Shown here piece after piece: positions 32,944 to 50,774 of a stretch of DNA of 64,000 nucleotides. The DNA is from an uncultured Polyangiaceae bacterium (lineage in GTDB: Bacteria > Acidobacteriota > Thermoanaerobaculia > Multivoradales > JAHEKO01). The stretch lies in the NCBI GenBank assembly GCA_964195975.1, contig CAXMQZ010000087.1:747-64746 (forward strand). Direction: 5' to 3'. Each line of letters opens with the position of its first letter. Position 1 is the first letter of the stretch. Under the pieces are notes generated by a model. The model worked only from the letters and a program-made list of their open reading frames with translations, was not told where the DNA came from and searched no databases. The translations under genes and the position numbers were made by a program.

Positions 32944-33093
32944 CACCACTCCTGGCCACCGCTGCGAGACACGCCGTCCCCACGACTCTGGCAGGTCCGA
33001 CCCTCTAGCAGGTTGAGGCGACGATATACTGGTCGAAGATCTGTCGTTGTTCAACGTTTGCCCAAATTATTCATGGGGGCTAGGAGGGACGAG

Positions 33094-33684: not shown

Positions 33685-33695
33685 GGTCTCTCGAA

Positions 33696-34352: not shown

Positions 34353-35280
34353 CCGTCGAGTGTGGCGACTGACCGCGCTGGTTGCTTGTGCTGTCGGATG
34401 GGGCTGGATCTCGCCCGCCGCAGGCAAGGAAGTTCCTTTTCTCTCCGGGCGAGTCAACGACCTGGCAGATCTCCTGTCTAGCCAAGCAGAGAACGATATC
34501 GAAATGCGGCTCGAAGCGCTCGAGACCGAGAGCGGAGCGCAGATTGCCGTGCTGACAATCCACAGTCTGGAAGGCGAGGTTCTAGAAGATTACAGTCTTC
34601 AAGTGGCCGAGACCTGGAAATTGGGTCGTGGACAATTCGACGACGGTGCATTGTTACTGATTGTCCGAGACGAGCGTAAGATGAGACTCGAGGTGGGTTA
34701 TGGCCTCGAGCCCATTTTGCCGGATGCCATCGCCAAACGTATCCTCGATACCGTACTTCAACCCCGCTTCCGTGAAGGTGATTTTGACGGCGGAGTGATC
34801 GCCTCGATCGATACTATCGCGGGTCTTGTCAAGGGTGATGGAACGTTGCCTCCACCCGCAATCGATCCAGCTGCCGGCAGCCGACGACATGGTCCCTCAA
34901 ACGCGATCGGCTTCCTCGTGTTCCTGGCAATTGTGGGGCTGTTCTCACTGCAGGCCCTATCCTCTCGAGGGTGTGCGGGTTGGGGATTGTATCTGTTCTT
35001 GCTGCCGTTCTGGATCTTCTTCCCGATCGCAATCTTCGGTAGACCGGGAGGCTATATCCCGGGAGTCCTTTGGATTGTCGGGTTCCCCTTGCTTTGGCTT
35101 GTGCTCCACCGCACCTCTGGCGGCAAGAAGTGGTTCGATCGCCACGATGGGGGTGGTGGTGGACCCCTCATCTTTGGCGGTGGTGGTGGTGGCTGGTCGT
35201 CTTCGGGAGGCGGTTTTGGTGGCGGATTCAGCGGTGGAGGTGGAAGCTTTGGCGGTGGCGGGGCCTCGGGCAGTTGGTAG
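34327..35280 (+). CDS. TPM-domain protein (YgcG-like) with Gly-rich C-terminal tail
   Basis: It has a signal peptide and a TPM core (..LEALETESGAQIAVLTIHSLEG...LLLIVRDERKMRLEVGYGLEPILPDAIAKRI..). These are followed by TM segments and a GGGGGxxGGGG tail. Confidence 0.75.
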   Translation: MSPDSTMSSRRVWRLTALVACAVGWGWISPAAGKEVPFLSGRVNDLADLLSSQAENDIEMRLEALETESGAQIAVLTIHSLEGEVLEDYSLQVAETWKLGRGQFDDGALLLIVRDERKMRLEVGYGLEPILPDAIAKRILDTVLQPRFREGDFDGGVIASIDTIAGLVKGDGTLPPPAIDPAAGSRRHGPSNAIGFLVFLAIVGLFSLQALSSRGCAGWGLYLFLLPFWIFFPIAIFGRPGGYIPGVLWIVGFPLLWLVLHRTSGGKKWFDRHDGGGGGPLIFGGGGGGWSSSGGGFGGGFSGGGGSFGGGGASGSW

Positions 35281-36725: not shown

Positions 36726-39170
36726 TTGAACAGCGCCCATCCATTCAGTTCCCGCCGAGCGGAGTTGGTCCACCTCGTCAATATCGTGGTGGTGGCGCTG
36801 TTTGCGACAACCCCGGTTGTGGCCCATATGCCACCAACGGAGGCCGCCAATCAGGCAAGCCAGGGCGCGATGATCCCCGGGCCCAATTCGACGCCACCCT
36901 TTCTTCGTCGCTATATCGATGTCGACTACGGTGGGAACGGAAAGCCGGGATGGGTCCATGCGGCGGACATGGACAGGGATGGCGACCTCGACATCGTCGC
37001 CGGTGGAGGCTTCGCCCTGTTCATCTATGAGAACGACGGCGAAGAAGGTGGCTGGAAGCGGTTTGGAAATCTCGACGTCTCCAACGCTATCGGTGCCAAC
37101 GGTGGAGAGCTCTATGATGTCGACAACGACGGGCATATCGATGTCGTTTCAGCCAAGTACCAGGACGATGTCGGCTGGTGGAAAAACCCCGGGCCCCCTC
37201 TCAGCAGCACTCCCTGGGATTTTTTCATCATTAGCACCGAGACTCGATACATGCACGACCTGATTCGTGTCGATATCGATGGTGATCAGGTCGCAGAGGA
37301 GTTCATTGCCGACCTGAATCAAGGCTACTGGAACGCCAGGATCACAATCAAATGGTTTCGCCCCGGCACTGATCCCCAACAGGCCTGGGAGCAACACACT
37401 ATCGAGGTCGATCGGCCCGAGGGTTCGCCCCATGGGCACTCGGGTCTCGATCTTGCGGACATCGACGACGACGGCCAATTGGATCTTGCCTATTCCAACG
37501 GCTGGTATAAGGGGCCGGCCGATCCGGCAGGGGTATGGACCTGGTACGAAGTCACAGACGAGTACGGCATCTCGAACACTCTTGCCCGGGATATGGATGA
37601 GGACACCGATCTCGATTTATTGATGGGCGCCGGTCACCATGGTCAGGGAGTCTATTGGTACGAGCAACCTGAGGATCCAATCGCAGGAGTCTGGACCAAG
37701 CACGATATCGACGCCTCGATCCATCACCCGGAGTGTCTACAGACGACCGACGACGGCAACGACGGTGACATCGACGTCGTAACCTGCAACCTCTTTTTTG
37801 GTGAGGATCCCGGAGAGCCCGATTGGTCGGAGGAAGTTCACGACATATTCATGTTTGAGAATCTCCCCGGAAAAAACAACTGGGACATGACCCTGATCAG
37901 CCCCAACTCCTTTCCCAGTCATCAACTACAGCTGAGCGATGTCAATCGGGATGGTCGACTGGATATCTTGAGCGAGTCGGCAGCACACTCGGTCATCAGC
38001 TACTACGAGAACGCCTTTGATCGCCTTCGACTCGACCTCGAAGTCGTCGACGAAACCTACCCGGGGAATGGCCGACCCGGCTGGTCGAGCACCGGGTACA
38101 TCGATGGCGACAACCTTCTCGATGTGATCGCTGGAGGCGGTGGAGCTATTCACTGGTATCGAGCACCCGATTGGACGCGATTCCCTATCGAGGTCATTTC
38201 CACCGCAGGCGGCAACGGGGGTCTCATCATGCAGGTCGACGACGATCCCTATCCCGACGTCGTCGCGGCACTGTTTGACGGCGATCTTGTCTGGTGGCGC
38301 AACCCCGGACCCGGTTCGGTAACCGGAGTTTGGACCCGTCACATCATTGACGGTGCTATCTCCGACTTCAACCACGATCTCGTCATGGGAAACCTAGACG
38401 AGGATCCCGACGAAGAGATCGTTGCCCTTTTTGTCGATGGGGGAGTCTTCTGGTACGACATCCCCGCCGATCCGTTGACCTCGCCGTGGCCCAGGACCAC
38501 CATCCTCAATACGATCAGCGACCCTTTTGTTGGACTGGCAATGTGCAATTTAGACGGTGATTCCGATCTCGACGTCGTGATCTCGAACCGCTGGTATGAA
38601 ACGCCGGCGAACCCCTCGACGCCGAACTGGGTTTCGCACCAACTCTTCAGCCAGAATGTTCAAAACGTCACTTGTGCTCAGGTCAACAGTGACGCCAGGA
38701 TGGATGTCGTCGCAGCCGAAGGATTTGTTCATCCGAATGGTCGTATTCTCTGGTCGGAGTCACCACCCGACCCGCGCAATGATTCCTGGGCTGAACATGT
38801 CATTTTGGATGGGCTTGATGGACCCGAGAACATCTGGGCCGGCGATCTCGATGGCGACGGCGACACCGATATCGTAAGTGGCGAAATGGGAACCTCGACC
38901 GGATGGGACGACTCTGACAGCAACCTTTTTATTCTTTTCGGACGCACCACACCAACTCTCGGTTGGGAGCGTCGAGATCAAGCCTGGAGCGTAGGCGTCA
39001 GCGCGCGGGTCAACCCATCCGATTTCGACACCGATGGCGATATCGACTTCGTCGCCGACGGCAACGCCGAGGGTCACATCTATCTCTGGCGCCATGTCGG
39101 GACCAACGCCTTTTTCAGCGACGGCTTCGAGACCGCCGACATGTCGGCTTGGACAGCCTTCCAACCGTAG
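36726..39170 (+). CDS. FG-GAP/VCBS-repeat beta-propeller protein
   Basis: At least 9 DxDxDGxxD(I/L/V)V repeats, for example DMDRDGDLDIV, DVDNDGHIDVV and DLDGDGDTDIV. Confidence 0.7.
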   Translation: MNSAHPFSSRRAELVHLVNIVVVALFATTPVVAHMPPTEAANQASQGAMIPGPNSTPPFLRRYIDVDYGGNGKPGWVHAADMDRDGDLDIVAGGGFALFIYENDGEEGGWKRFGNLDVSNAIGANGGELYDVDNDGHIDVVSAKYQDDVGWWKNPGPPLSSTPWDFFIISTETRYMHDLIRVDIDGDQVAEEFIADLNQGYWNARITIKWFRPGTDPQQAWEQHTIEVDRPEGSPHGHSGLDLADIDDDGQLDLAYSNGWYKGPADPAGVWTWYEVTDEYGISNTLARDMDEDTDLDLLMGAGHHGQGVYWYEQPEDPIAGVWTKHDIDASIHHPECLQTTDDGNDGDIDVVTCNLFFGEDPGEPDWSEEVHDIFMFENLPGKNNWDMTLISPNSFPSHQLQLSDVNRDGRLDILSESAAHSVISYYENAFDRLRLDLEVVDETYPGNGRPGWSSTGYIDGDNLLDVIAGGGGAIHWYRAPDWTRFPIEVISTAGGNGGLIMQVDDDPYPDVVAALFDGDLVWWRNPGPGSVTGVWTRHIIDGAISDFNHDLVMGNLDEDPDEEIVALFVDGGVFWYDIPADPLTSPWPRTTILNTISDPFVGLAMCNLDGDSDLDVVISNRWYETPANPSTPNWVSHQLFSQNVQNVTCAQVNSDARMDVVAAEGFVHPNGRILWSESPPDPRNDSWAEHVILDGLDGPENIWAGDLDGDGDTDIVSGEMGTSTGWDDSDSNLFILFGRTTPTLGWERRDQAWSVGVSARVNPSDFDTDGDIDFVADGNAEGHIYLWRHVGTNAFFSDGFETADMSAWTAFQP

Positions 39171-39178
39171 ATTGGAAC

Positions 39179-40186
39179 TCAGCGCATACTGTTGAGTCCG
39201 ACAAAGGTGCCACCGTTGCGGCGGCAAAGAATGCGCATGAGGGTGGCAAACCGGACGCCTGTAGTATCGGAGACGCCGGCGACCGTAAAGATAACCGGAA
39301 ATCCGATTGCGTGAATCCTCACCAAACGACTGCCTGATTTGTCGCTCTTGTTGATTCGATCGACGGTTCGCACCACCTCGTCGATGGATCGGCCAGTGAA
39401 CTCGTCACCAAACACGTAGATGCTCACCTTCTTGTCCGGAGCCGCAAAGGTCCTGATGGCTCGCGTAATCCCTTCGACCGGGCTACTGTTGCTAAAAACA
39501 CTCCAGCTGCGCAGGCGATCAAGAATCACTTTCCGGCGTGCCGGTGTATCGGGTATCCACTTTCCGGAGTAGCGCGAGAACATGTACTGGCCCATGTCGT
39601 TCATGACCTGCAAACCCTTGACCGTTGGATAGGCGTCCAGTACCTGCGTCATCTTTTGCTGAACCAGCGGCCAGGCATAGGTAAACATGCTGCCCGAAGT
39701 GTCGATCACGAAGATGATGTACTCGCTATCGACAGGAATTCCTCCGACTAGCTCCTGTTCGATCTTCCGCCTGCCGGTCTGCTGTTGAAGACGGAGCATC
39801 TCGGCTGTGAGATCCTGCTGAGCCGCCTCGAGCCGCCCTGCGATGATCTCACTCACAGCCGAGTCCTGGCTCGATGCGGCAAACTCGCCTTGGATCTCCA
39901 GTAGATCGCCTTTGAGACGTGCGAGCTTCTCCTGCTCTTTCGAGAGTTGTTCGATCCGGCCAGGAAGCTCTCGGTTCAAGATCGTGGTCTCTCCTCGAAT
40001 CTCGAAGAGCTCTTCTTGAAGTTTGGCTATCAACCCATCCAGATCGACTCGTGCCATTTCGATCGCACGGGGCTCGCCGATCTTAGTAAGGACAAGAAGC
40101 AACACAATGGCTCCAAATCCACAACAGATGACGTCCAGGAAGGAGAGACTGAAACCGTCCAGACCAGCCCTGTTTCTTTTTCTCAT
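39179..40186 (-). CDS. ExbD/TolR-like TM anchor + coiled coil + vWA domain protein (paralog 2)
   Basis: The N-terminus SLSFLDVICCGFGAIVLLLVL has an Asp in the ExbD/TolR position. It is followed by a long coiled coil and a vWA motif IIFVIDTSGSM. Confidence 0.6.
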   Translation of the reverse strand: MRKRNRAGLDGFSLSFLDVICCGFGAIVLLLVLTKIGEPRAIEMARVDLDGLIAKLQEELFEIRGETTILNRELPGRIEQLSKEQEKLARLKGDLLEIQGEFAASSQDSAVSEIIAGRLEAAQQDLTAEMLRLQQQTGRRKIEQELVGGIPVDSEYIIFVIDTSGSMFTYAWPLVQQKMTQVLDAYPTVKGLQVMNDMGQYMFSRYSGKWIPDTPARRKVILDRLRSWSVFSNSSPVEGITRAIRTFAAPDKKVSIYVFGDEFTGRSIDEVVRTVDRINKSDKSGSRLVRIHAIGFPVIFTVAGVSDTTGVRFATLMRILCRRNGGTFVGLNSMR

Positions 40187-41307
40187 GGCCAGTCGTCCGA
40201 TGGGCTCAAGAACGACCCTCGCGTGGCCATAGCAAGCCGCCAGAAGGCACTCGATGCTTCGGGGTCTCCCTCCATCGGGAAGAGGATTACGTTGACGGGA
40301 ATGCTCTTGGGTAGCTGATCAAAAGCTCGATTGAACAGCTTGAGTCGCTGTTTGGCGCTGACCTTGTTGGATTTCGGGGGGGTGCGTCCCATCGTAGGTA
40401 GGCCATCGACCAGCAGCACGATATTGTCCGGTTTGGGCTGGAGCGTTGCCACTGATTCGAATGCCCTGTACAGATTGGTACCCTTGTCCGGTGGGGTGAT
40501 CCGGAGGCGCTCGACCGCCTCGTCCAAAAAACCGGGATCGTTGGCTCGCAACCAGGTCCCTTTGGTGTCGGGGATCAAGGATTCAACCCTCTCATTGAAC
40601 GTATAAATCTGAAACTGACTGTCCTCGGGCATTTGGGCCGTTAACCAGTCGACGGTAGCAACAGCCTGACGCCACTTGCCAGACAGAATTTTCTGACGGT
40701 CAGGGAGGTTCCGTCGCCGAATCACATTGACCACAGTAGAGCCCAACATGCTTGCGGAGCTATCCACCAAGATTAGGATCCTGTTTCCACCTACTTTCAA
40801 TCCGGTCAAATACTGACGAGTCCCGTCGCCAATGACCGTGCGGATCTGATCACCTCCTGAGTCTCCTTCGGTCACCGCTAGGGCGGCAAATCGCCGAGTA
40901 CTCTCCTCGAGCGATTTCAAATCGGCCATCAACTTGTTGAGATGCTCCTGCTGCGCAAGACTGAGGTTCTCGTGTGTAGCGAGCTCGACTTGAAGGGCCT
41001 CGATCTCTTCGATGAGCCGTCTAGACAGCCCTTGCGCGATAACTTTTTTCTTGACGATGTCTCGAAGCGAGTTGCGAAGCTCGACGAGTCGCTCATGACC
41101 TTCCAGCACTTCGTAGTCCAGCCGGTCCACTTCGGCCTGCAGGTCTTCGGTCATCCTGTCGGATCTCAGACCCACCGAGGCATTGATCACCATGAACAAG
41201 AGCACCACGGAGCCAAAGCCGCACGTCATCGCATCTAGAAACGACAGGCTGAAGACGCTCGCTTGACCTCTTGACGCTCGTCTAGCCATCGTTCTCCAAC
41301 ACGACAA
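40183..41307 (-). CDS. ExbD/TolR-like TM anchor + coiled coil + vWA domain protein (paralog 1)
   Basis: The N-terminus FSLSFLDAMTCGFGSVVLLF is followed by a coiled coil and the vWA motif ILILVDSSASM. Confidence 0.6.
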   Translation of the reverse strand: MSCWRTMARRASRGQASVFSLSFLDAMTCGFGSVVLLFMVINASVGLRSDRMTEDLQAEVDRLDYEVLEGHERLVELRNSLRDIVKKKVIAQGLSRRLIEEIEALQVELATHENLSLAQQEHLNKLMADLKSLEESTRRFAALAVTEGDSGGDQIRTVIGDGTRQYLTGLKVGGNRILILVDSSASMLGSTVVNVIRRRNLPDRQKILSGKWRQAVATVDWLTAQMPEDSQFQIYTFNERVESLIPDTKGTWLRANDPGFLDEAVERLRITPPDKGTNLYRAFESVATLQPKPDNIVLLVDGLPTMGRTPPKSNKVSAKQRLKLFNRAFDQLPKSIPVNVILFPMEGDPEASSAFWRLAMATRGSFLSPSDDWP

Positions 41308-42691
41308 TCAACGGAATTTCGATACCAGGGCTTCCCAAACCGAGACGATCTCCTGCTTCGGCTTCACAAGTTCCGTCGATCGGTCGGTCGTTGAGGTAGG
41401 TCCCATAGGTACTGTGGTCCTCGATCAGAACCCGATCACCATCTCGGCGGATATGGCAGTGAGATCTCGAGACACCAGTGGTGTCTCCCGTCAGGTTTAC
41501 ACCCCGTTGATCACCAGCCAGGGCCACACCCAACCAGAACGGTTCCTCCCCAATTGGATAGGCGGTGCCACCGTAGACCAGGTGAGTCGGTGGACGCCTC
41601 GCCAGAGTCGGGGCTGTTGTGACGATCGGCTGTTCTCCAGGCTGTGTCGCCACGATATCGACCGTCGGTTTACCCAGTCGAACCACAAAAGGAAGCTCAT
41701 CACCTTCGGCCTCGATTTGGAGGCGATTGACCAGAGCACCAACCGCCGCTGCTCCTTCGGGCAGGACGACGACGTCGGTTCCACTCAGTTCGGCCAACCT
41801 GGATTGCAGCCCTGGAATCGCCGCAGCGCGCGAAGTCAACAGGATCTGCGGCGCGTCTCCTGACGCCGTAAGCGCTCCTGCCAGATTCGAGACTGTTCTG
41901 AGTTGATCTTGCACAGCTGCGATGAACTGACTCCTCGCAACGTCGATCGTATAGATCCGACCTCCATACTCGAGACTCACCTCTGCGACGTCTTCGTCTC
42001 TCAACATGTCCAGCCAAGCCGGCAAGCTGTCGTAGAGAGCCTGCTCGCTGGCTGCGTTGTGCAAAGGGTCGAAACGGGTACTGCGCACAAACTGCCCTGC
42101 GATGAGCTTCGCCCACAGGTCCTGCATCGTGGCAAGACCAACAGCCCCGCTCTCTTGGACCCGCTGGCGGACAAGGCCCGAAGTCTGATCCATCTCGGTC
42201 CAGACAAACCGATGTAGAAGAATCTCCAGATGAAGTATCCGATCGGCGTTCGAGTGACCAGCAACAGATGCGAGCGCGCTATCTACCAGCCCGGAGACAG
42301 GCATCCCGGCGGATCGGGCGATGCCGAGCAGCAGGCCTAGCTGCCAGGTCAGAAACGACCCCGGTACGGCCAGCAACATGCCCTCGACCCCGTCGCCGTC
42401 ACGAGTTGCACTGACAGCCTCCTTCGACAAAGCTTCGAGGTGTCGGTGAACCAGATCCGCCTGAGTGAGCTGTTCGGGGAATGGCCGAGGCAGGGAGTCG
42501 GTACCCAGACTATCCCAGAAGTCATTCAGCGAGCGACGCGGGTTGAGCCGCGCCTGGGCTCTTGCTTCTTGGCCAACAACCACCGATGTGCCGTCCAAGA
42601 GAGCATAACCAGGACTTGGGCCCACGATCAGCCCCTGGCCGTCCGAGATCAAAATGCCCGGGTCGGTAAGCTCGATCGCCAGAATAGACAC
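41282..42691 (-). CDS. Hsp70/actin-fold (possibly catalytically degenerate) protein with C-terminal FHA domain
   Basis: The N-terminus AIELTDPGILIS...VVVGQEARAQARLNPRRSL resembles DnaK GIDLGTTNS...VGQPAKRQAVTNP. The C-terminal FHA signature is GVSRSHCHIRRDGDRVLIEDHSTYGTYLNDRPI. Confidence 0.55.
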   Translation of the reverse strand: MSILAIELTDPGILISDGQGLIVGPSPGYALLDGTSVVVGQEARAQARLNPRRSLNDFWDSLGTDSLPRPFPEQLTQADLVHRHLEALSKEAVSATRDGDGVEGMLLAVPGSFLTWQLGLLLGIARSAGMPVSGLVDSALASVAGHSNADRILHLEILLHRFVWTEMDQTSGLVRQRVQESGAVGLATMQDLWAKLIAGQFVRSTRFDPLHNAASEQALYDSLPAWLDMLRDEDVAEVSLEYGGRIYTIDVARSQFIAAVQDQLRTVSNLAGALTASGDAPQILLTSRAAAIPGLQSRLAELSGTDVVVLPEGAAAVGALVNRLQIEAEGDELPFVVRLGKPTVDIVATQPGEQPIVTTAPTLARRPPTHLVYGGTAYPIGEEPFWLGVALAGDQRGVNLTGDTTGVSRSHCHIRRDGDRVLIEDHSTYGTYLNDRPIDGTCEAEAGDRLGLGSPGIEIPLIVVLENDG

Positions 42692-42741
42692 GACGCTCCC
42701 TTGTCAGACCCGTTGATTCAAAGAGTCCTTCGGTTCCATCT

Positions 42742-43554
42742 TCAGCTTCTTGTCTCCCCGGCTATTTGAAGATGTCGAATGAGGTTTCGGTCGAGATAGT
42801 TCTCCGTTTCCAGCACCAACCTCTCCTGTTGAAGCTGCAGCTGATGCAGCAAGAACATCAACACGATGCTTATGAGTAGAGCGACAAAAGTCGAGTTGAA
42901 CGCTACCCCCAGGCTCTGGGTAACACCTGCAATATCTCCTTCGACCGCCTTGTGGGCCTGACCCAGGGCCTCACCGATTCCCCGCACTGTTCCTAGAAAG
43001 CCTATCGAAGGGATGGCCCAAGCAATATAGCGAACCATCGACAACTCGGAATCCAGTCGCTCTGACTCGGCATTGACGATTGCATGGGCGGTTGTGGAGA
43101 CATCTTGAATGTTGCGCGTGGCACCAAAGCGATCCAATGAAGCCAGCAATGCCCTGGGAAGAAGATAGTACTGTTCTGACTCCGGTAGCGACTGAATCTG
43201 CCGCGCGTACTCTCGCGCATCTTCCGGAAGGATCTTGGTTCCGTCAGCGAGAAGCACCAACTCCTCTTGCAACTGTTTGTGCTCCTTGGCGGTCTCGATT
43301 CCTTTGTACACCATGATCGCAATCGCCCAAAACATCAGGACAAAACAAGCCTCTTGCTCGAAATCTCGAATAACCACCCAGACGGATCGTTCTTGCACAT
43401 AGGATGGGTCGACCTGCATCAGCGCTGTCTGCTCCGCCAGAATCACAGCAGCGCGAGGTCGAACCACAATCACATAGAAAGCGTGGACGACGATCAGCGA
43501 CACCGCTAGCGATAGGGCTTGGTAAACGAACTCGACCGGGTAGTTCTTTTTCAT
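42742..43554 (-). CDS. MotA/TolQ/ExbB-family proton-channel protein
   Basis: Three TM helices with the conserved YIAWAIPSIGFLGTVRGIGEALG and ...STFVALLISI... signature. Confidence 0.75.
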   Translation of the reverse strand: MKKNYPVEFVYQALSLAVSLIVVHAFYVIVVRPRAAVILAEQTALMQVDPSYVQERSVWVVIRDFEQEACFVLMFWAIAIMVYKGIETAKEHKQLQEELVLLADGTKILPEDAREYARQIQSLPESEQYYLLPRALLASLDRFGATRNIQDVSTTAHAIVNAESERLDSELSMVRYIAWAIPSIGFLGTVRGIGEALGQAHKAVEGDIAGVTQSLGVAFNSTFVALLISIVLMFLLHQLQLQQERLVLETENYLDRNLIRHLQIAGETRS

Positions 43555-43567
43555 GAGAGAAGTGGCC

Positions 43568-43843
43568 TCAGATATCCACAGGAAAGGAAACCGAGCTGCC
43601 AGCCGGCAACTTCTCGGTCGGAACAAAAACCTTCAAAGACTCGGTGGGCCGATCTTGCTGTGACTCCTCGTCCCCACTCTCCTCTTCCGGCGCGCCGCTG
43701 GCCTCAGAGTCCGGTTCCTGCTCGGGGGTGGCTTCGACTTGCTCCGATTCTGACCCGGTTTGGGCCACGGACGGAGAGTCCAGCGTCCACAGCCAACCTG
43801 CCATGACTACCGCGGTGAATAGGACAACGACGATCAATTTCAT
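43568..43843 (-). CDS. small TM-anchored acidic, disordered protein (hypothetical)
   Basis: The 91 aa ORF sits between operon genes with 13-14 bp spacers. It has an N-terminal hydrophobic helix followed by an E/S/D-rich region. Confidence 0.35.
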   Translation of the reverse strand: MKLIVVVLFTAVVMAGWLWTLDSPSVAQTGSESEQVEATPEQEPDSEASGAPEEESGDEESQQDRPTESLKVFVPTEKLPAGSSVSFPVDI

Positions 43844-43857
43844 TTATCTCTCCTAGG

Positions 43858-46311
43858 CTATTCAGCAAATCGGGCCACGCGAAAGCCGACATCGGGTCGA
43901 GCTTTGTTGCCATAGTCCCGATAGCTCAGCCTGAGCTCGGTTATTGTCGAATCCATCCAACTCGAACCTCGAATGACACGATAGTCCCCCTCCGCCGGCC
44001 CCAAGGGGTCGACATCAGGTCCTTGCGTCGTCGGTGGCGGTATCGAGTAGTAGTCCTGCACCCACTCGGCGACATTACCGCCCATGTTCTTGACCCCGAC
44101 ATCGTTGGCGTCGAAGCTGTCAACTGGTGCTGTCGCTGGATATCGGTCGTTGTAACCCGAAAGTGTCTTTTGGAGCATCTCAGCTGCCGATTGATCGCCA
44201 TAGTTACCCGATCCTGATGGTACCGGCAACGAATCTCCCCAGGGGAACTTGAGCGCCTGCTGTCGACCAGCAAACCGAGCGGCCCAGGCCCACTCGGCTT
44301 CCGTTGGCAAACGATACCCGGTATTGAACGGTTGCACGAGGACGAATGTGCCACCCTCTCCAGTATAGGCCTTGGGAAGCGAGTCCTGTTCACTCAACCA
44401 GTTGCAAAACCTCACGGCGTCCTCCCAGGTTACTCCAACCACGGGGTGGTCATCTTTTTCCAGACTTGCGCTCTCCGCCCTTCCAGATCGATGACTCGGC
44501 TGAAACTTCTTGAACTGCCGATTGGAGATCTCGCGAGCACCGATGTAGAAAGCTCGTGTAAGCTGAACATCGCGCAGCGTCTCATTGGCCCTGCGGCCCG
44601 GCTCGCGTCGCGACGCGCCCATTCGAAACGAGCCCGGCTCGATCAGCACCAGCTCCTGACCCAGCGAATTACGAAGTGTCGCTGGTGTGGACGCCCTGCG
44701 AACCTCCTCGGGTGTTCTAAGTGTCACCCGAATCTGTTGCGGGAAGCCCGGACGAGGTGTAATGGTCTGCCGAAAGGTCTCGAAACCCTCCTTTTCAACT
44801 ACGATCTCGTGCGGTATGGCTTGCAAACGCAGCGTCTGGTTTGCCCCACCTCTCGATTCGCCATCGACAATGAGCTCTGCATCGGCTGGCCTGCCATCGA
44901 TCTCGATCTCGCCAAATAGGGGTACCAGCTCGACAGTCACCTCGTGTCGTTTTCCGGACACTATTTCGACCGACTCGTTCGAGGCTTCGAAACCCAGCTT
45001 GGATAGACCGATCTCATATGACTTACCTGGCTTGAGCTCCAGCTTCAACGGAGTCTGTCCGGCATATTCGCCATCGATCGACACCGTTGCCTCTCGAGGC
45101 TGACTCGCCAGAACCAAGATTCCATCGCTAGGTTGTAAGACGATTGATGGCAGTGACTGCGGTACATTCGCCTGGACCAGCAGCTGACTCCGATACGATT
45201 TGTACCCTCTCAGACTCACTTCCACCTTTCGACTTCCAGCAGCCACATCGGCTACCACCGGTGTCTTGCCGACCGACATGCCATCAATTTGAATCGTGGC
45301 TCCGGTCGGTTGTGATTTGAATTCGACCGCGGCCCAATTCGGAGTCAAATCAACCGACAAATCGAAGATCGCCCCCGCGCCCTCCACCGGCACCGTAGTC
45401 GAGAACGGGACGTAACTCGGATGAATGATTTCAACAAGGTGGTTGCCCTCCGCCAGCGGCACTGGATCGATTGGTGTTCGGCCGACCGACTTGCCATCGA
45501 CCAGCACCTCTGCGTCACCGCTGGGACGGGCCGTTATGACAAGCAGACCTGGCATCTTCTCTAGCGTGTACTGATAGCTCTGACTAGCCTCACGCGTTAC
45601 TTCGAGTGGTGCTGCCAAAGGAAGATAGCCCTCCTTTTCGAGCCGCACTTGGTATTCGCCCGGGCGAAGAAGATAGCGACCACCCAGCTCGATCTTCAAC
45701 CGAGTTCCGTCGACCGAGACTCGATCCGCCGGCGGATCGCTCGAGATCTCTACAGCCCGGGCGGTAAACAGGAACCAGGCCGCAGAACCCAAAAGCACCA
45801 AACTTGCAAGAACCACTATTCTTGCAAGACTCGGCTTCTTCCTTCTGGCTCGCGTTCGGTCAATCGAAGCCGGCGTAAACTCCACTGGGCTTACTCGCGT
45901 GTCTATCTCATGATCGGCACCCTTTTCCGGCCGAGATCTCGCCTGAACGAGGGGTGGGTCGGTCTTTATCTCAGGGGGTCGATGCGCTATCTCGAAATGA
46001 AAGCCGTTCTCACGTTGGGACACCGAGATCTCACTTTGCCCCAGTCGAAGAATGTCTCCGCTACGCAGCCACTGCGACGCCGATAACGGTGCACCATTAC
46101 AGATCACGACCACATCGCCATCCATGGGTTGGACAAAGAGGTCGCCTCCCTCAAACCCCAGAATGGCCAGCGGTTTGTCGCCGGAATAGCCTGGGATGCG
46201 GATGTCGCTCTCGGGGCCACCTAGATGTAAGGGGAGCTCGTCGGACCGAAACCTGTCCTCTCCATCTGCGTGAACAACCACGATGGCTGTACTCAAATCT
46301 TCTCCTCGCAC
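43858..46311 (-). CDS. FHA - TM - multi-PEGA - FGE-sulfatase (formylglycine-generating-enzyme-like) domain protein
   Basis: An N-terminal FHA domain (..GDILRLGQSEISV..) and one TM helix are followed by at least 5 PEGA-like repeats (..VDGKSVGRTP.., ..IDGMSVGKTP.., ..IDGEYAGQTP..). The C-terminal FGE-sulfatase domain reads RMGAS...HPVVGVTWEDAVRFCNWLS...YRLPTEAEWAWAA...GNVAEWVQD...GFRVARF. Confidence 0.75.
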   Translation of the reverse strand: MRGEDLSTAIVVVHADGEDRFRSDELPLHLGGPESDIRIPGYSGDKPLAILGFEGGDLFVQPMDGDVVVICNGAPLSASQWLRSGDILRLGQSEISVSQRENGFHFEIAHRPPEIKTDPPLVQARSRPEKGADHEIDTRVSPVEFTPASIDRTRARRKKPSLARIVVLASLVLLGSAAWFLFTARAVEISSDPPADRVSVDGTRLKIELGGRYLLRPGEYQVRLEKEGYLPLAAPLEVTREASQSYQYTLEKMPGLLVITARPSGDAEVLVDGKSVGRTPIDPVPLAEGNHLVEIIHPSYVPFSTTVPVEGAGAIFDLSVDLTPNWAAVEFKSQPTGATIQIDGMSVGKTPVVADVAAGSRKVEVSLRGYKSYRSQLLVQANVPQSLPSIVLQPSDGILVLASQPREATVSIDGEYAGQTPLKLELKPGKSYEIGLSKLGFEASNESVEIVSGKRHEVTVELVPLFGEIEIDGRPADAELIVDGESRGGANQTLRLQAIPHEIVVEKEGFETFRQTITPRPGFPQQIRVTLRTPEEVRRASTPATLRNSLGQELVLIEPGSFRMGASRREPGRRANETLRDVQLTRAFYIGAREISNRQFKKFQPSHRSGRAESASLEKDDHPVVGVTWEDAVRFCNWLSEQDSLPKAYTGEGGTFVLVQPFNTGYRLPTEAEWAWAARFAGRQQALKFPWGDSLPVPSGSGNYGDQSAAEMLQKTLSGYNDRYPATAPVDSFDANDVGVKNMGGNVAEWVQDYYSIPPPTTQGPDVDPLGPAEGDYRVIRGSSWMDSTITELRLSYRDYGNKARPDVGFRVARFAE

Positions 46312-48350
46312 CGCACGACCACCGGATCCATTCTTCCCTCTGGGGAGACCTTGAATACACGTCGCACATCGCGGTACCCCTCACGGCTCCCTATCGCGGT
46401 GTAGGAGCCCGGTCGCAACTCGAGCTGACGTTGTTCGAACCGACCGAGCGACCCGACCCGGTAGACCACCACATAAGTGTAGTTGTCAGACACCAGTCGA
46501 ATCTGGACCGGAGTAGAAGCCACCTCGATCACCTGCTCGAGCTGAGTGATCTGGCGTCGGATTCTGGGGCCCTCCGGGAGAGCATCTCTGGCTTGGCCCA
46601 ATAGATCGATGGCCTCATTCAGCACCGGCTGAGTGGAGAATCGATCCGGATGCATGATGTGAAAATCGAGCCGATCGCTCAACTCGGCTCGCTCGGATGC
46701 GAGGCGCTGCCCTTCGATGGCAAAGCGGATCGCTGGGTCGAGCTTCAGGACCGCCGCGTACTCGGTCTCCGCTTCTCGCCAATGCTCGGTACTCGCAAGC
46801 TCCCGCGCCCTTTCGCGATGACTTTCAATCGCTGCTAGACGCATCTGTTGTTCGGCCCTGGCCAGACCATCGGCTGCCTCTCTGGAGTCGGGTCGGACCG
46901 CCAGCGCTCTCTGAAACGCTGCCTGTGCCTCCGAGAAGCTGTCTCGTTCGAGCGCACGCAGGCCAGCCGACATTGCCTCTGAAAAGGCCTTTACACCCTC
47001 GGAACTGGGTCGGCGATTCTGAGGAACCGACAGACGAGGCGGCTCCGGCAACGGCGTTGGCCTGGCAGACGACAGATCTTGATCGGGTGCGGGTGGCTCA
47101 GCTGCAGAAGCAACGACAGGAGAGGGTCGGGCCTCGATCGTCTCAATCGCGTCGCCATCCCCTGAGCTCGGCCCTGTTGACGGTCCTGGGGGCGGCTTGG
47201 CCAGCCCAGCGGGCCCGGACCTACCTTCCTCGGAATCAATTCGTATCGGTTCTCCAGCCTCGATCTCCTCTCCTACATCTTCAGCCGCCTCCGACCCGGG
47301 AACGGCGACCTGAGGATTCTCGCGCACCCAGTTGGGCAGAAGTACAAACACGGCCACCGCCAAGAGCCCAAGAAATCCAAATGCCAAGACGGTCATGATC
47401 CGGCCAGAGCTCCAGCGACTACCGACCCGCCCTTTCGTACGCTGAGCCGAAATAGATGCGGTAGCTATTCGCGATTCCAACGCACGAGGTGGAGCGCTGA
47501 TTCGAATGGGTGCTACCGGACGACCCTCGGGCTTCGCATCCGTGGTCGAGATCACGGCGAGTACTTCCTTCAAGGCTTGTCGAACAGATGCCATGTCCGA
47601 AGGCCTGTCTGAGGATCTTCGAGACAGCATGCTAGCGACCAGGTCATCAGCTTCGACAGGTAGCGAGCAGATCGAAGAGAGTCTGGTCGCCGTGCGACCA
47701 TAGCGGTCCTCGATCGAAGCGAGATCCGAAAAGACGGACTTTCCGGCGATGAGCTCGAACAACAGAGTGCCCAGCCCGTAGATGTCATCCGAGATGGCTG
47801 CAGGCTCCCCGCTCGATTGCTGTGGACTCTGATTGGTCTTCGAACCGCCACCAACCAGCTGCAAGTCTGTGGCGCTCGGTTCGAGCAGACCTGCTATTCC
47901 AAAATCACCGACGCGTAGCCGCCCTTGCTTGTCGAGCAGAATATTGCTGCACTTCAGATCGCGATGAATGACTCCGGCGGCATGCGCGTATTCCAGTGCG
48001 TCAACGACTCCACCTACTTTTTTCAGAATAGCAGGCAGAGAACCACCGAGTAGCTGCCCCATATCCCCGCCATCGAGATACTCAGCCGTGTAGAAGATCT
48101 CCTGATCGACTTCATGGAGCTCATAGACTCGGACGATGTTTTCGTGAACGAGTTTTTTCGCTATCCGAAACTCTTGCCGCAACAGATCAGCCGAGGTCCC
48201 CGAGGCATTGCCCCGCGCCAACTTGATCACCAGGTCGATATCGAACTCGGTGTCATGGGCGAGCCAAACCTCGCTCATACCCCCCGAGCCGATGCTTCGA
48301 ATCGCCTTGAAACGGGTACCGAGATGGCGTGAGCTACTCAAGTCAGGCAT
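46293..48350 (-). CDS. Hanks-type Ser/Thr protein kinase with TM segment and C-terminal TPR-like/unknown extracytoplasmic domain
   Basis: Kinase motifs GSGGMSEV, HRDLKCSNILL and DFG are present. A TM helix (IMTVLAFGFLGLLAVAVFVLL) is followed by a Pro-rich linker and helical repeats. It overlaps the downstream gene by 19 bp. Confidence 0.85.
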   Translation of the reverse strand: MPDLSSSRHLGTRFKAIRSIGSGGMSEVWLAHDTEFDIDLVIKLARGNASGTSADLLRQEFRIAKKLVHENIVRVYELHEVDQEIFYTAEYLDGGDMGQLLGGSLPAILKKVGGVVDALEYAHAAGVIHRDLKCSNILLDKQGRLRVGDFGIAGLLEPSATDLQLVGGGSKTNQSPQQSSGEPAAISDDIYGLGTLLFELIAGKSVFSDLASIEDRYGRTATRLSSICSLPVEADDLVASMLSRRSSDRPSDMASVRQALKEVLAVISTTDAKPEGRPVAPIRISAPPRALESRIATASISAQRTKGRVGSRWSSGRIMTVLAFGFLGLLAVAVFVLLPNWVRENPQVAVPGSEAAEDVGEEIEAGEPIRIDSEEGRSGPAGLAKPPPGPSTGPSSGDGDAIETIEARPSPVVASAAEPPAPDQDLSSARPTPLPEPPRLSVPQNRRPSSEGVKAFSEAMSAGLRALERDSFSEAQAAFQRALAVRPDSREAADGLARAEQQMRLAAIESHRERARELASTEHWREAETEYAAVLKLDPAIRFAIEGQRLASERAELSDRLDFHIMHPDRFSTQPVLNEAIDLLGQARDALPEGPRIRRQITQLEQVIEVASTPVQIRLVSDNYTYVVVYRVGSLGRFEQRQLELRPGSYTAIGSREGYRDVRRVFKVSPEGRMDPVVVRCEEKI

Positions 48351-48371
48351 GGCCTCGGGGACACGCCGGAC

Positions 48372-49610
48372 TCACTGCAAAGACGAGGTCTCGATGGCCA
48401 GCTCCGTGTCGGCGTTGGGGTCACCAGCAAGTCCGGTCTCCGTGGCATAGATTTGTTGAAGCAGACCTCGCCACTTGGCGTACTGGTTTTCGAGGTTACC
48501 GGTAAGGCGAACGGTCTCGCCCTCCACCTCCACCACCAACGGGGCGACCTCGGCATCGAACGAAACCCCGAGCTCCCTGATGGCTTCGCGATGCATCTTG
48601 GCTTCTTTTCCGGTTGCTATTCCGCTTCGCAGCACCATGATGCCACCGATCAGGGCAGCATCCCTGGCCACCGCCTCCAGACCGCTTCCTGGACTGGCTA
48701 CGACAGCTCCAAAGATCGCCAGTGCACCAATGATTTTGCGATTTCGAGCCTTTTTCTTGATCTCGTCCAATGCTATCTGCTCTTCGTAGGTGTAAGAGCG
48801 CCAGTCGTCGTAGGGAACCTCCATCGAAGCAGAGAAGTTGGCGTAGTTCTCATTGAGCGTGTCGATGAACATGTAGTCGCGCTCTCGTATCTGGACGATT
48901 CGGCCCATCATGGGATCGTCTTGCGCAGGCAGCTTCGCTACCGTATAGCGACCCTTCCTGTTGATCTCCAGATAGTCGTCGTAGAGCGTGGGTGCCAAGC
49001 CTCTTGCAAAACGCAGCTCGGAGATCCGTCTAAGCACCAGAAGATCTTCATTCTTCAGTTTTCTCCGAGTCTCGAGAAGCTCATTGGCTATGGCTCCATA
49101 GAGCGCCTCGAACGGCTCACGTGTCTCCAGTTCCTCGCTCTTCGGACCATAGGCGCGAGTGTCAGCCTCCTGTTTGAATCGCTTCTCCAGCCACTCGCGT
49201 CCGGATGAATCGGTGGCGCTTACCTCGACGACAAGCACTTTTCCATTCGACTTGATGATTCGACCGGTCACCGTCAGATCAACCGATGCGGTGTCTTGAG
49301 GCACGACCCGAACGGCACCCCATTGCCCCGTAGACTCGAGAGTCTCTTTCAAGCGCATGGGAATGTAGCGAGCCTCAGACTTTCGAACCTCAGGAAAGAC
49401 CTCGACCTGGTACTTCTTGTCTGTCGTCGGTTCCTCGGAGAGACCCGGATCAAAGAGCTCGATCCCCACATCGAGAAGGCTGTCCTCGGGTATGTCCTCG
49501 CGGGCCTGGATGGCCTTTGTGCTGGTCGTAGCGCTGGTTGCCGGACCGGATAGACCGGTAAGGAAAAGAGCTGCTGCCAGAAAAGTGCATCGAAGCTGAA
49601 GTCGTTTCAT
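48372..49610 (-). CDS. secreted hypothetical protein (signal peptide, C-terminal hydrophobic segment)
   Basis: The 412 aa ORF is in the operon. It has a signal peptide (MKRLQLRCTFLAAALFLTGLSGPATSA). Confidence 0.5.
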   Translation of the reverse strand: MKRLQLRCTFLAAALFLTGLSGPATSATTSTKAIQAREDIPEDSLLDVGIELFDPGLSEEPTTDKKYQVEVFPEVRKSEARYIPMRLKETLESTGQWGAVRVVPQDTASVDLTVTGRIIKSNGKVLVVEVSATDSSGREWLEKRFKQEADTRAYGPKSEELETREPFEALYGAIANELLETRRKLKNEDLLVLRRISELRFARGLAPTLYDDYLEINRKGRYTVAKLPAQDDPMMGRIVQIRERDYMFIDTLNENYANFSASMEVPYDDWRSYTYEEQIALDEIKKKARNRKIIGALAIFGAVVASPGSGLEAVARDAALIGGIMVLRSGIATGKEAKMHREAIRELGVSFDAEVAPLVVEVEGETVRLTGNLENQYAKWRGLLQQIYATETGLAGDPNADTELAIETSSLQ

Positions 49611-49636
49611 CTCGTGTCCCCTACAGTTCGTCCTGA

Positions 49637-50596
49637 TCAGCTCTTGCTGCTACCGGACTTGTAGTCCCGATACTCTTCCCACAGTTTCTCACGAAGCTCC
49701 GGATCGTCCTCGGTCATGGCTGCCTCTCGAAGCTGTCGCGCGATGATGTCGTCGTCGCTTCCATCACCGACATCCGATGGCACCCGGCCACCACCACCGC
49801 CTCCGGCAGATCCGCCACTCGCTTCACCTTCCTGCTCGGCCACTTCTTGTTGCTCGGCTTGTTCCGCGGCACCACCCGACTCCTCTCCTTCAGCCCCGGC
49901 CTCAACATCGGCGATCGCAGTGTCAGCATACTCTCCAGCACCCGAGTATCCTCCGCTTTCGGCTCCTGAGGCGGCCTCCTCCGCAGCGGCCGCGCTCGCC
50001 TCTTCCCGGCGCTCCTTTTCGAGAAGCTCCTGTTCTCGGAGCAACTCGCCATCGAACTCGGCAAGCGATCGCGCCAACTCTTCATCGAGAGCCGCGGTCC
50101 GCTCGCCGGCGGTCTGCGATCCTTGACGGATCGCGCCTCCAGAGGCTGCAGCCCTGGCATCATCGGGTACGGCGGGGCCACTTGGCTCGCTCGGCTCCCC
50201 AGAGGGATTTTCAGAACCCGGATCGCTCATAGAGGCTTTCTCAGGTTGACCACCCTCGGGCCCAGCAGCACCGTCCTCTCCAGAGGACATTTCATCGCTG
50301 CCGCCTTCAGCCGACTCGGCGCCCTCTCCAGGGGGCAGTACCTGCTCGACCTGAGAGGTTTCGGCTCCCCCTCCCGATTCCGAATCCGAAGGTGGCTGGC
50401 TGGGGTCAGAGGGGCTGGATGTCGGAGATGGAGGTGGAGGCGTCGAAGGTGTTTGCGGGGCCGACGGCGAGGGTGGAGTCGGCGGCGGCATCGATGGCGA
50501 AGGAGGCTGCGTCGAGGTACTCGAACAGCCCACGAAGGCCATCGCATGACCGATCAACGCTGCTACCAACAGTAGTTTTCTTGGCTTGACTCTCAT
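49637..50596 (-). CDS. lipoprotein with Pro/Ser-rich and acidic low-complexity regions
   Basis: Starts at MRVKPRKLLLVAALIGHAMAFVGC (lipobox-like). It has PPTPPSPSAPQTPSTPPPPSP and E/A/G-rich tracts. Confidence 0.5.
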   Translation of the reverse strand: MRVKPRKLLLVAALIGHAMAFVGCSSTSTQPPSPSMPPPTPPSPSAPQTPSTPPPPSPTSSPSDPSQPPSDSESGGGAETSQVEQVLPPGEGAESAEGGSDEMSSGEDGAAGPEGGQPEKASMSDPGSENPSGEPSEPSGPAVPDDARAAASGGAIRQGSQTAGERTAALDEELARSLAEFDGELLREQELLEKERREEASAAAAEEAASGAESGGYSGAGEYADTAIADVEAGAEGEESGGAAEQAEQQEVAEQEGEASGGSAGGGGGGRVPSDVGDGSDDDIIARQLREAAMTEDDPELREKLWEEYRDYKSGSSKS

Positions 50597-50774
50597 GACA
50601 TCAGCTCTCGTTAGCAGCGGCAACTCGAACAGGGCGCGATTCTCAGGTCCGGGCGATTCCCAACCGAACATTCCCGATGTGTCCGAGCAGGAACTGATTA
50701 CAGTCTAGCTCAAGCTCGTTCGACCTTGAGAACCGCTGCGTCTACCTCTAAATTCCTAGCAAATACCAGGCCAA

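Follow-up and report, generated by a model that had tools for sequence, protein, structure and literature searches.

An Hsp70-like domain with degenerate nucleotide motifs, joined to an FHA domain, is encoded in a conserved proton-channel operon

Proton-driven channels of the TolQ/ExbB/MotA type are the power source for flagella, Tol-Pal, Ton, gliding and Zorya defence, and to our knowledge the control of their cytoplasmic faces has been worked out in very few cases. In the 64,000-nucleotide stretch of bacterial DNA analysed here (the window), an operon of nine genes, g1 to g9, encodes such a channel subunit (g6) directly beside g7, whose product carries an Hsp70-like and an FHA domain, so what might a protein of this kind do next to a proton channel? 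The features of the operon are collected in Table 1. The g7 gene starts with GTG, has a Shine-Dalgarno sequence (AGGGAG) 5 nt upstream of it, and ends in an 8 nt overlap of its stop with the ATG of g8. Its translation contains no visible TM segment or signal peptide, and its 669 homologs are about 470 aa long. The linker between the two domains has pLDDT below 50 at residues 345–362 of the predicted model, and in 52 homologs it is 20–45 aa long and unconserved.

Table 1. Features of the nine-gene operon and of g7, in window coordinates
Feature	Coordinates	Strand	Description	Basis
g1	49637..50671	-	Probable lipoprotein with long acidic/Pro-rich low-complexity region	Translation; conserved first operon gene
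g2	48372..49610	-	Secreted; N-terminal domain like ring-forming outer-membrane-proximal lipoproteins (FlgT-ring protein, PelC, TolB-N, CsgG, PqiC)	
g3	46293..48350	-	Transmembrane Ser/Thr protein kinase with periplasmic TPR region	Pfam Pkinase E 1.5e-34, TPR; TM in translation
g4	43858..46311	-	N-terminal FHA-like cytoplasmic domain, TM helix, 5 PEGA repeats, FGE-sulfatase domain	Pfam PEGA, FGE-sulfatase
g5	43568..43843	-	Small secreted peptide, invariant C-terminus ...SFPVDI	ORF, positional homologs
g6	42742..43554	-	TolQ/ExbB/MotA-family proton-channel subunit, 270 aa from ATG 43554	Pfam MotA_ExbB E 1.5e-14
g7	41282..42691	-	469-aa cytoplasmic protein: Hsp70-NBD-like domain, linker, FHA domain	ORF, translation
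g7 residues 1–340	41672..42691	-	Hsp70 nucleotide-binding-domain fold, nucleotide motifs degenerate	Structure comparison
g7 residues 341–367	41591..41671	-	Linker: disordered, Pro-rich, variable in length and sequence	pLDDT, homolog comparison
g7 residues 368–462	41306..41590	-	FHA domain	Pfam, PDB matches, conserved residues
g8	40183..41289	-	N-in TM helix with conserved Asp (SFLD), coiled coil, vWA with D-x-S-A-S MIDAS	Pfam VWA_2, translation
g9	39179..40186	-	g8 paralog: TM with SFLD Asp, coiled coil, vWA with D-T-S-G-S	BLASTP g8 vs g9 E 2e-9

Comparison of g6 with TolQ (8odt) aligns TM2–TM3 and shows both pore threonines to be kept (G-T-V and (N-S)-T); the mechanical open reading frame of g6 starts at TTG 43626 and overlaps g5, and ATG 43554 was taken as its start. 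Pfam and NCBIfam searches gave no ExbD, TolR or MotB matches in the operon. The SFLD aspartate and MIDAS of g8 are at least 90% conserved (n = 84), as is the SFLD aspartate of g9 (n = 82; g9 conservation values have n = 80–82). An N-terminal profile of g4 has marginal FHA matches (EssC, kinesins, Rv1747), and g5 homologs of 54–61 aa with the same position and C-terminus are present at five other loci (L001, L002, L003, L084 and L085). A scan of the operon for promoters and terminators found nothing beyond chance.

The placement of g7 between the channel and its vWA partners, pointed out in the original prediction, recurs at about 80 loci, drawn from three phyla, across which the order of all nine genes is fixed. 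Clustered at 50% identity, the g7 family has 2,233 representatives, and 381 species genomes contain it (the genome scan used an eight-sequence alignment of close g7 relatives). No g7 homolog was found on plasmids by tblastn, and literature searches returned no description of a g7-type protein or of the nine-gene operon. This uncharacterised, proton-channel-based envelope machine is thus present in hundreds of bacterial species with g7 as a fixed part, and since cultured Steroidobacter and Peristeroidobacter strains have the operon, its genetics and biochemistry are feasible.

Could this be an anti-phage or conflict system, either built like Zorya around a MotA channel or of the Kaur-Aravind vWA/FGE/kinase type, with g7 as signal relay? 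The g6 protein weakly matches PADLOC ZorA (E 2e-4), the kinase matches PD-T4-6 models, and the conflict systems of PMC7159879 reuse FGE-sulfatase, vWA, PEGA and kinase domains. However, these PADLOC matches are generic and at the level of domains, g7, g8, g2 and g1 are unmatched in PADLOC-DB 2.0, where g9 has only a marginal LmuB match (E 0.05–0.08), and neither MotA nor ExbB is mentioned in PMC7159879. An effector (nuclease, protease or NADase), a MoxR or STAND NTPase and a plasmid homolog are all absent, and fixed nine-gene synteny in three phyla together with a periplasmic component resembling ring lipoproteins is more like housekeeping envelope machinery. We therefore consider a defence role very unlikely.

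The N-terminal domain of g7 was originally proposed to have an Hsp70/actin fold, and Foldseek structural matches agree and assign its 340 aa to the Hsp70 nucleotide-binding-domain (NBD) fold. It is a two-lobed, actin-like domain closest to Hsp70 NBDs, with Ssz1 as the top structural match; PilM and FtsA are not its closest structural relatives. At the sequence level the relationship is distant. Pfam HSP70 (PF00012) does not match g7 or, at E up to 10, any of 22 individual N-domains, single-sequence searches of Pfam, NCBIfam, PADLOC and the PDB (phmmer) with the g7 N-domain gave no matches, and DnaK is reached by HMMER with the g7 family profile only (E 1.3e-3). HMMER nonetheless gives the same pairing of VVGQEARAQARLNP and VGQPAKRQAVTNP as had been drawn earlier between g7 and DnaK. 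A protein of this fold might also form filaments and serve, like MreB, as a cytoskeletal element that follows the motor or sets its position, the part that MreB plays in Agl-Glt gliding; to this we attach very little weight.

Are the nucleotide-binding residues of this Hsp70-like domain conserved? The phosphate-1, phosphate-2 and adenosine loops proved to be degenerate across the g7 family; the lack of G-T-T in phosphate-1 had been noticed before, and the other motifs are more degenerate than was then noted. At the phosphate-1 site, where Hsp70s have D-x-G-T-T-x-S, g7 residues 7–13 are E-L-T-D-P-G-I and the family consensus is E-(L/I)-x-D-A-G-(I/V/L), with residue equivalence taken from strand-loop-strand positions in the predicted g7 model. 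In the HMMER alignment the phosphate-2 segment of the family, LHLD-i-q-L-h-r-v-v, pairs with LVFD-L-G-G-G-T-F-D of T. thermophilus DnaK, so that D-L-G-G-G-T is replaced by D-x-(Q/H/L)-L-H-R; the Asp is kept in 48 of 52 homologs and is Glu in the g7 of the window. The adenosine motif G-G-x-x-R-x-P fares similarly: VILVGGATRVP of DnaK pairs with LLLS-x-R-x-A-x-LPG, and G-G becomes S-x, positions 286–287 being S/T/A and H/D/S in the family. Ungapped extension of the HMM alignment puts an invariant tryptophan, W59, opposite the catalytic lysine K70 of DnaK, while hhalign with a single DnaK sequence (probability 3%, E 0.014) deletes eight residues including K70 in the g7 family; neither alignment has a conserved Lys opposite K70.

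By these comparisons the g7 N-domain appears to derive from an Hsp70 NBD whose ATP-holding, glycine-rich loops have been lost, and we therefore take it for a structural or docking module that works without nucleotide and not for a chaperone ATPase; g7 would then be a pseudo-ATPase that does not bind ATP. It could instead still be an active Hsp70/actin-type ATPase with non-canonical motifs, which remodels or assembles the motor or its vWA partners and uses the FHA domain to select clients. Acidic residues do persist at or beside the Mg-coordinating positions (E7 in 47, D137 in 51 and D156 in 48 of 52 homologs, against D8, E171 and D194 of DnaK), D10 and G12 of the phosphate-1 loop are invariant, and the overall order, an NBD followed by a linker and a beta-sandwich, resembles that of full-length Hsp70, with Foldseek alignments extending over 530–570 columns. 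Nevertheless, all three glycine-rich phosphate/adenosine loops are bulky throughout the family (Q/H/L-L-H-R; S-x-R), the catalytic Lys is not alignable, and Pfam finds no J-domain or nucleotide-exchange partner (DnaJ, GrpE) in the operon, so we judge an active ATPase to be unlikely. Since D10, R206, D208, E216 and Q217 are invariant polar residues in the cleft region and the acidic positions persist, some ligand, even a non-canonically bound nucleotide, is possible under the docking-module reading.

Like every other part of the original prediction that could be checked, the C-terminal FHA domain is borne out; the canonical Arg of its G-R motif, however, is missing. Pfam FHA (PF00498) scores 39.6 bits against a gathering threshold of 20.7 (E 7.4e-10, covering only model positions 15–67 of 67), and the domain matches FHA structures in the PDB. 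Residues that contact phosphothreonine or shape the binding loops, namely S408 (48 of 52 homologs), R409 (45), H411 (49), S427-T428 and N434 (52), are kept in 87–100% of the family (T428 is T in 35/52 and T or S in 42/52), as is G388 (52/52). The residue after G388 is V, I, S or T and never the conserved Arg, and R396, present in 37/52 homologs, is two residues away from where the canonical Arg would stand, within an extended beta3-beta4 loop. At both informative loci where g7 lacks the FHA domain, the operon's kinase domain is missing too, an association of two loci counted with phylogeny ignored.

This co-variation lends indirect support to a link with kinase signalling, and phosphothreonine reading by the g7 FHA domain, with phospho-dependent regulation, is suggested by the retained residues. 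But in seven operons whose g7 has the FHA domain, g3 has no kinase domain (one, L029, may be cut by the contig end), and with the canonical Arg absent as well, the FHA domain may be phosphorylation-independent or use other kinases. It could be a plain docking domain like those of EssC, YscD and GltG, with the kinase regulating something else; the weak Pfam match of g7 to Yop-YscD_cpl and the second FHA-like domain in g4, more degenerate than that of g7 and without S-x-x-H, favour this. The family-wide retention of the phosphothreonine-site residues, R396 near the canonical position and the joint loss of FHA and kinase domains all speak against it, and we regard phosphorylation-independent docking as possible and a minority reading. 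That g7 couples kinase signalling to the motor, as was originally suggested, remains the interpretation that we prefer.

In the model that we think probably correct, g7 is a soluble subunit, on the cytoplasmic side, of a conserved envelope-spanning machine, with an Hsp70-like dock and a phospho-responsive FHA domain. The machine would be centred on the TolQ/MotA-type proton channel g6, and its transmembrane partners would be the heterologous TM-coiled-coil-vWA pair g8/g9 instead of TolR/ExbD. The Hsp70-like domain, the constant part of g7 that is present even in FHA-less variants, would most likely be seated at the channel's cytoplasmic face, held either by the cytoplasmic domain of g6 or by the short N-terminal tails of g8 and g9, and the docking site at the channel might resemble that of the actin-fold adaptor PilM gripping the PilN tail. 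On its flexible linker, the FHA domain would act as an accessory phosphothreonine reader that makes motor assembly or activity responsive to the transmembrane Ser/Thr kinase g3, which may sense something periplasmic through its TPR region. More tentatively, and with more doubt than belief on our part, g7 could define a new kind of cytoplasmic component in proton-driven motors of the 5:2 type, an Hsp70-derived pseudo-ATPase that serves as clutch, brake or torque receiver (as FliG or YcgR does for MotA) and is switched through its FHA domain by a periplasm-sensing kinase, in a previously unrecognised phospho-regulated machine whose vWA heads pull on the outer-membrane-proximal ring g2 or the peptide g5.

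The family is large. In all its members the proton channel is encoded alongside a domain of Hsp70 origin that appears to have abandoned ATP, and in most of them an FHA domain would link this domain to a Ser/Thr kinase. If this reading is true, bacteria have put the Hsp70 ATPase fold to new use as a passive scaffold, and the TolQ-plus-vWA motors, proposed only in 2025 (PMC12204202), gain in g7 a tangible regulatory subunit.

How does g7 compare with known systems? The g7 protein differs from Hsp70s (DnaK, Ssz1, Ssb, BiP and Hsp110/Sse1) in a subdomain IB about 40 residues shorter, in carrying an FHA domain (residues 368–462 of a protein that ends at 469) in place of the C-terminal substrate-binding domain and lid, and in lying inside a motor operon without DnaJ or GrpE. 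Ssz1, an atypical Hsp70 of the ribosome-associated complex, is a scaffold and does not depend on an ATPase cycle; it is eukaryotic and has a rudimentary substrate-binding domain and a J-protein partner. Its proposed likeness to g7 as an Hsp70-type scaffold accompanies the structural match, but Ssz1 keeps its nucleotide loops and was crystallised with ATP-Mg (title of 4gni), whereas those of g7 are degenerate. PilM-PilN provides an actin-fold protein as cytoplasmic anchor of a trans-envelope apparatus, and adaptors of the PilM/FtsA/GspL type are, like g7, cytoplasmic actin-fold proteins encoded beside bitopic membrane partners; a PilM:PilN(1-12) fusion (5eou) is among the structural matches. 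The T6SS Fha1/TagH with PpkA, GltG of Agl-Glt, whose FHA domain is predicted to dock beneath the TolQ-like pentamer, and mycobacterial FhaA/FhaB(FipA) likewise combine an FHA domain, a transmembrane Ser/Thr kinase and a membrane machine, but none of these FHA proteins has an Hsp70-like domain, g7 lacks the canonical FHA Arg, and NCBIfam TagH and FhaB matches to g7 are weak and far under the cut-offs (TagH 21.6 vs 120). The operon core has a parallel in PMC12204202, which samples mostly Proteobacteria and Verrucomicrobia and proposes a TolQ-like channel with paired TPH-vWA "force transducers": the MotA/ExbB-family gene, the two heterologous TM-vWA genes, each with a conserved Asp in its helix, and the lack of tolR/exbD all fit that description. 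The passages retrieved from that paper mention no Hsp70-like or FHA gene, kinase or PEGA-FGE protein, all of which are present in the operon described here.

The product of g7, the gene under study, has an Hsp70-NBD-like domain (NBD, nucleotide-binding domain; residues 1-340), a linker (341-367) and an FHA domain (368-462), and has neither a TM segment nor a signal peptide, which places it in the cytoplasm. The original prediction had delimited this minus-strand ORF exactly, and the four peptides it quoted are all found in the 469 aa translation; the start codon is GTG, with a good Shine-Dalgarno sequence (AGGGAG) five bases 5' of it. The family is well populated (669 matches, proteins of ~470 aa), and its members are annotated in the source databases solely as "hypothetical protein" or "FHA domain-containing protein". 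At three positions that its family largely conserves the window's own g7 deviates: residue 57 is D where 46/52 homologs have R, residue 156 is E where 48/52 have D, and residue 451 is G where 47/52 have R.

Residues 1-340 were not recognised by Pfam, NCBIfam or PADLOC in single-sequence searches, and none of 22 family members scanned individually reached the Pfam HSP70 model, even at E up to 10. An AlphaFold2 model built from a 52-sequence alignment is confident (mean pLDDT 91.5), with disorder only in linker residues 345-362, and all 50 of its best Foldseek matches are Hsp70s (E down to 2e-19; TM 0.69-0.77 on NBD-only chains). In structure comparison MreB (25.4), actins and Arps (~20-23), FtsA (19.7), ParM (19.6), PilM (16.5) and hexokinases (~15) scored clearly lower. 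When a profile of the N-domain alone was compared with PDB sequences, the best 11 matches were again all Hsp70s, headed by T. thermophilus DnaK (E 1.3e-3), with the alignments in register. Because these three approaches agree, the predicted Hsp70/actin fold is confirmed and is Hsp70-like specifically rather than generically actin-like; we regard the structural claims as solid and g7 as, by descent, a divergent Hsp70 NBD. That g7 forms an MreB-like filament is highly improbable.

Nucleotide-binding residues were assessed by HMMER alignment to DnaK combined with column counts over 52 homologs, the register being confirmed with the PDB sequence only where that alignment extends. The phosphate-1 loop, whose equivalence to that of DnaK is by secondary-structure position in the model (between strands 2-7 and 13-17), reads E7-L-T-D10-P-G12, against E-x-x-D-A-G as the family consensus; D10 and G12 do not vary, and, as had been predicted, the hydroxyl/amide cradle of G-T-T is lacking. 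Conservation at the other sites shows phosphate-2 and adenosine motifs to be degenerate too. The phosphate-2 motif D-L-G-G-G-T-F-D of DnaK is D156-(L/I)-(Q/H/L)-L159-H160-R161-x-V in the family; its Asp is retained in 48/52 (Glu in the window's g7), and bulky residues, 88-96% conserved in their own right, take the place of its three glycines and Thr. The G-G position of the adenosine motif is S286-x287. At the position of K70, the catalytic Lys of DnaK, two alignments disagree and neither supplies a Lys: in one, extended without gaps from the N-P motif, invariant W59 falls at this position, and in the other hhalign pairs R-F-W-D...R-P-F with R-R-F-Q-D...M-P-F and deletes eight residues including K70. 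Acidic residues are retained at or beside metal-site positions (E7, D137, D156), and a family-specific invariant motif, T-R-F-D-P-L-H...E-Q, starts the region that is subdomain IIB in Hsp70. In our reading of these sequences canonical ATP binding has probably been lost in g7, a stronger statement than a degenerate phosphate-1 motif, and the cleft possibly holds another ligand or a partner peptide. A still-active, non-canonical ATPase, to which the retained acidic residues might lend themselves, is unlikely in the face of three degenerate motifs. By sequence model, motifs and domain architecture alike, g7 falls outside the Hsp70 family proper.

The FHA domain is the single Pfam domain of g7 (residues 404-453, E 7.4e-10; 39.6 bits, the gathering score being 20.7), and the best PDB sequence matches are the solved bacterial FHA domains of Rv0020c/TB39.8 and GarA. 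Most residues that shape the pocket or contact phosphothreonine are present, since G388, S408, R409, H411, S427, G430 and N434 are 87-100% conserved in 52 homologs. The domain had been called canonical; it is a real FHA domain, but "canonical" is a slight overstatement, because the conserved Gly lacks the Arg that usually comes after it, and the beta3-beta4 loop is longer by about five residues. In that loop R396, present in 37/52, lies two positions off the Arg of Rv0020c in the profile alignment. Phosphothreonine binding is, from these residues, likely though not assured.

The operon (Table) contains the predicted arrangement of g7 between channel and vWA partners, one that is kept in about 80 loci of three phyla. 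The channel, g6, can be aligned to TM2-TM3 of TolQ, with both pore threonines retained; none of g1-g9 is a TolR/ExbD/MotB homolog. The TM helices of g8 and g9 carry an S-F-L-D motif, in which Asp is conserved at 90% or more (n=84 and n=82), and a D-x-S-x-S MIDAS motif is retained in each vWA domain. The g8 ATG sits inside the final codons of g7, an overlap of 8 nt, and g9 and g8 overlap by 4 nt; g7 is translationally coupled and fixed in an operon with the channel and its vWA partners. The N-domain profile found 2,233 cluster representatives (50% identity) at E <=1e-3 and 1,142 at E <=1e-30. Scanning one genome per species gave 381 genomes with the family, mostly Acidobacteriota (Marinacidobacterales, Thermoanaerobaculia, Vicinamibacteria), gammaproteobacterial Steroidobacteraceae, including cultured Steroidobacter and Peristeroidobacter, and Desulfobacterales. 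Since the order and orientation of g1-g9 are the same in essentially all loci with enough flanking DNA, g7 is a fixed component of the system and not a chance neighbour.

Features of the operon, its surroundings and homologous loci
Feature	Position	Strand	Description
Operon g1-g9	39179-50671	-	tightly packed; g7 seventh
g1		-	lipoprotein-like; acidic low-complexity sequence
g2		-	secreted protein, 412 aa
g3		-	transmembrane Ser/Thr kinase; TPRs periplasmic
g4		-	FHA-like cytoplasmic domain, TM helix, five PEGA repeats, FGE-sulfatase domain
g4 N-terminus	45982-46311	-	first ~110 aa
g5	43568-43843	-	small secreted peptide
g6, mechanical ORF	42742-43626	-	MotA/ExbB/TolQ-family channel; TTG start 43626 overlaps g5
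g7	41282-42691	-	Hsp70-NBD-like and FHA domains
g7 end/g8 start	41282-41298	-	recurrent D-G
g8, g9		-	N-terminal TM helix, coiled coil, vWA domain; paralogs, E 2e-9
Known gene triad	50775-53750	-	directly upstream, separate from operon; sugar-transfer-associated ATP-grasp enzyme, 7TM + inactive transglutaminase fusion, putative ATP-dependent Zn protease
LemA gene, two TPM-domain genes	33013-35280	+	in that order
FG-GAP-repeat protein	36726-39170	+	814 aa; convergent with operon end
g5 homolog, L001	9011-9187
g5 homolog, L002	9018-9194
g5 homolog, L003	9007-9189
g5 homolog, L084	2118-2282
g5 homolog, L085	8980-9165
g3 homolog, L002	5372-6565		C-terminal TPR part only
FHA-GAF-SpoIIE gene, L001	13465-15102	-	PP2C-type phosphatase; straight after operon, opposite strand

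Read from ATG 43554 (MKKNYPVEF...), g6 has 270 aa, in line with homologs of 264-279 aa. In g7 homologs, whether or not they have the FHA domain, the D-G close to the C-terminus falls on the g8 start: GAT-GGC holds the g8 ATG, and its GGAG ribosome-binding site is within the L-E codons just before (TTG GAG). It is probably at the nucleotide level, rather than as a protein motif, that this tail is conserved. The g4 N-terminus has marginal profile matches, mostly to FHA domains (EssC, E 0.014; kinesins; Rv1747; E 0.014-1.2), and looks like a degenerate FHA domain without S-x-x-H; if it is real, the operon holds two FHA-type modules. The g5 ORF, between the PEGA-FGE and channel genes, encodes 91 aa in the window and 54-61 aa in homologous loci. 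Its N-terminus resembles a signal peptide, its spacer is acidic and its C-terminal motif is invariant: F/V-P-(T/S)-E-x-(L/I)-(S/P)-A-(D/G)-S-x-(V/I)-S-F-P-V-D-I-stop. In the periplasm the peptide could serve as an acidic ligand of the vWA MIDAS sites. Together the components fit an apparatus that spans the envelope.

Among 129 listed representatives that were inspected, about 30 are short (338-366 aa), ending 10-20 residues past the last NBD strand. Five of these short forms were looked up; the downstream vWA gene is full in L084, L085 and L089 and partial in L087, and they are therefore real FHA-less variants of the same operon. Both FHA-less loci with a visible g3 (L085, L089) have only its TPR part, without the kinase domain. 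Over all loci the kinase domain is present in 60 and absent in 7 with FHA, and present in 0 and absent in 2 without it (Fisher p 0.015, phylogeny ignored), an association that is suggestive, not proven. From the FHA-less variants and these counts, the Hsp70-like domain is the constant core and the FHA domain an add-on that tends to accompany the kinase. Seven operons retain the FHA domain and encode no kinase domain, and on the sub-question, which cuts across all the readings considered here, of whether the FHA domain acts without phosphorylation, we hold this possible though doubtful, the phosphothreonine-pocket residues being largely kept. A g3 reduced to its C-terminal TPR part despite a g7 FHA domain is seen in L002, L010, L012, L018, L023 and L072. 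As the TPR part is kept where the kinase domain is lost, the periplasmic part of g3 seems to function in its own right. The FHA-GAF-SpoIIE gene of L001 may be the kinase's counterpart; no gene of this type adjoins the operon in the window.

The reading that we favour, with reasonable though incomplete confidence, is that the NBD-like domain is a docking module and that the FHA domain brings it under control of the kinase. The former would dock, independently of nucleotide, on the channel's cytoplasmic face or on g8 and g9, by way of their short N-terminal tails, and the latter would read threonine phosphorylation made by g3, thereby gating assembly or activity. We give the reading of the operon as a defence system very little credence.

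TolQ-like channels without TolR, tightly linked to heterologous TM-vWA pairs with a proton-binding Asp in the TM helix of the vWA proteins, were put forward as a class in 2025, on the basis of genomics and AF3 modelling, according to passages of PMC12204202. The g6/g8/g9 core matches the class as those passages describe it; they mention no Hsp70-like or FHA gene, kinase or PEGA-FGE protein, all of which this operon has. In open-access papers and bioRxiv preprints we found neither an Hsp70-NBD-FHA protein nor the nine-gene operon described. PilM holds PilN, and the docking role proposed for g7 is comparable. Comparable too is the role of the GltG FHA domain, predicted to lie under the AglR pentamer (PMC11761067); g7 would work like the actin-fold adaptors of envelope machines and the FHA regulators combined.
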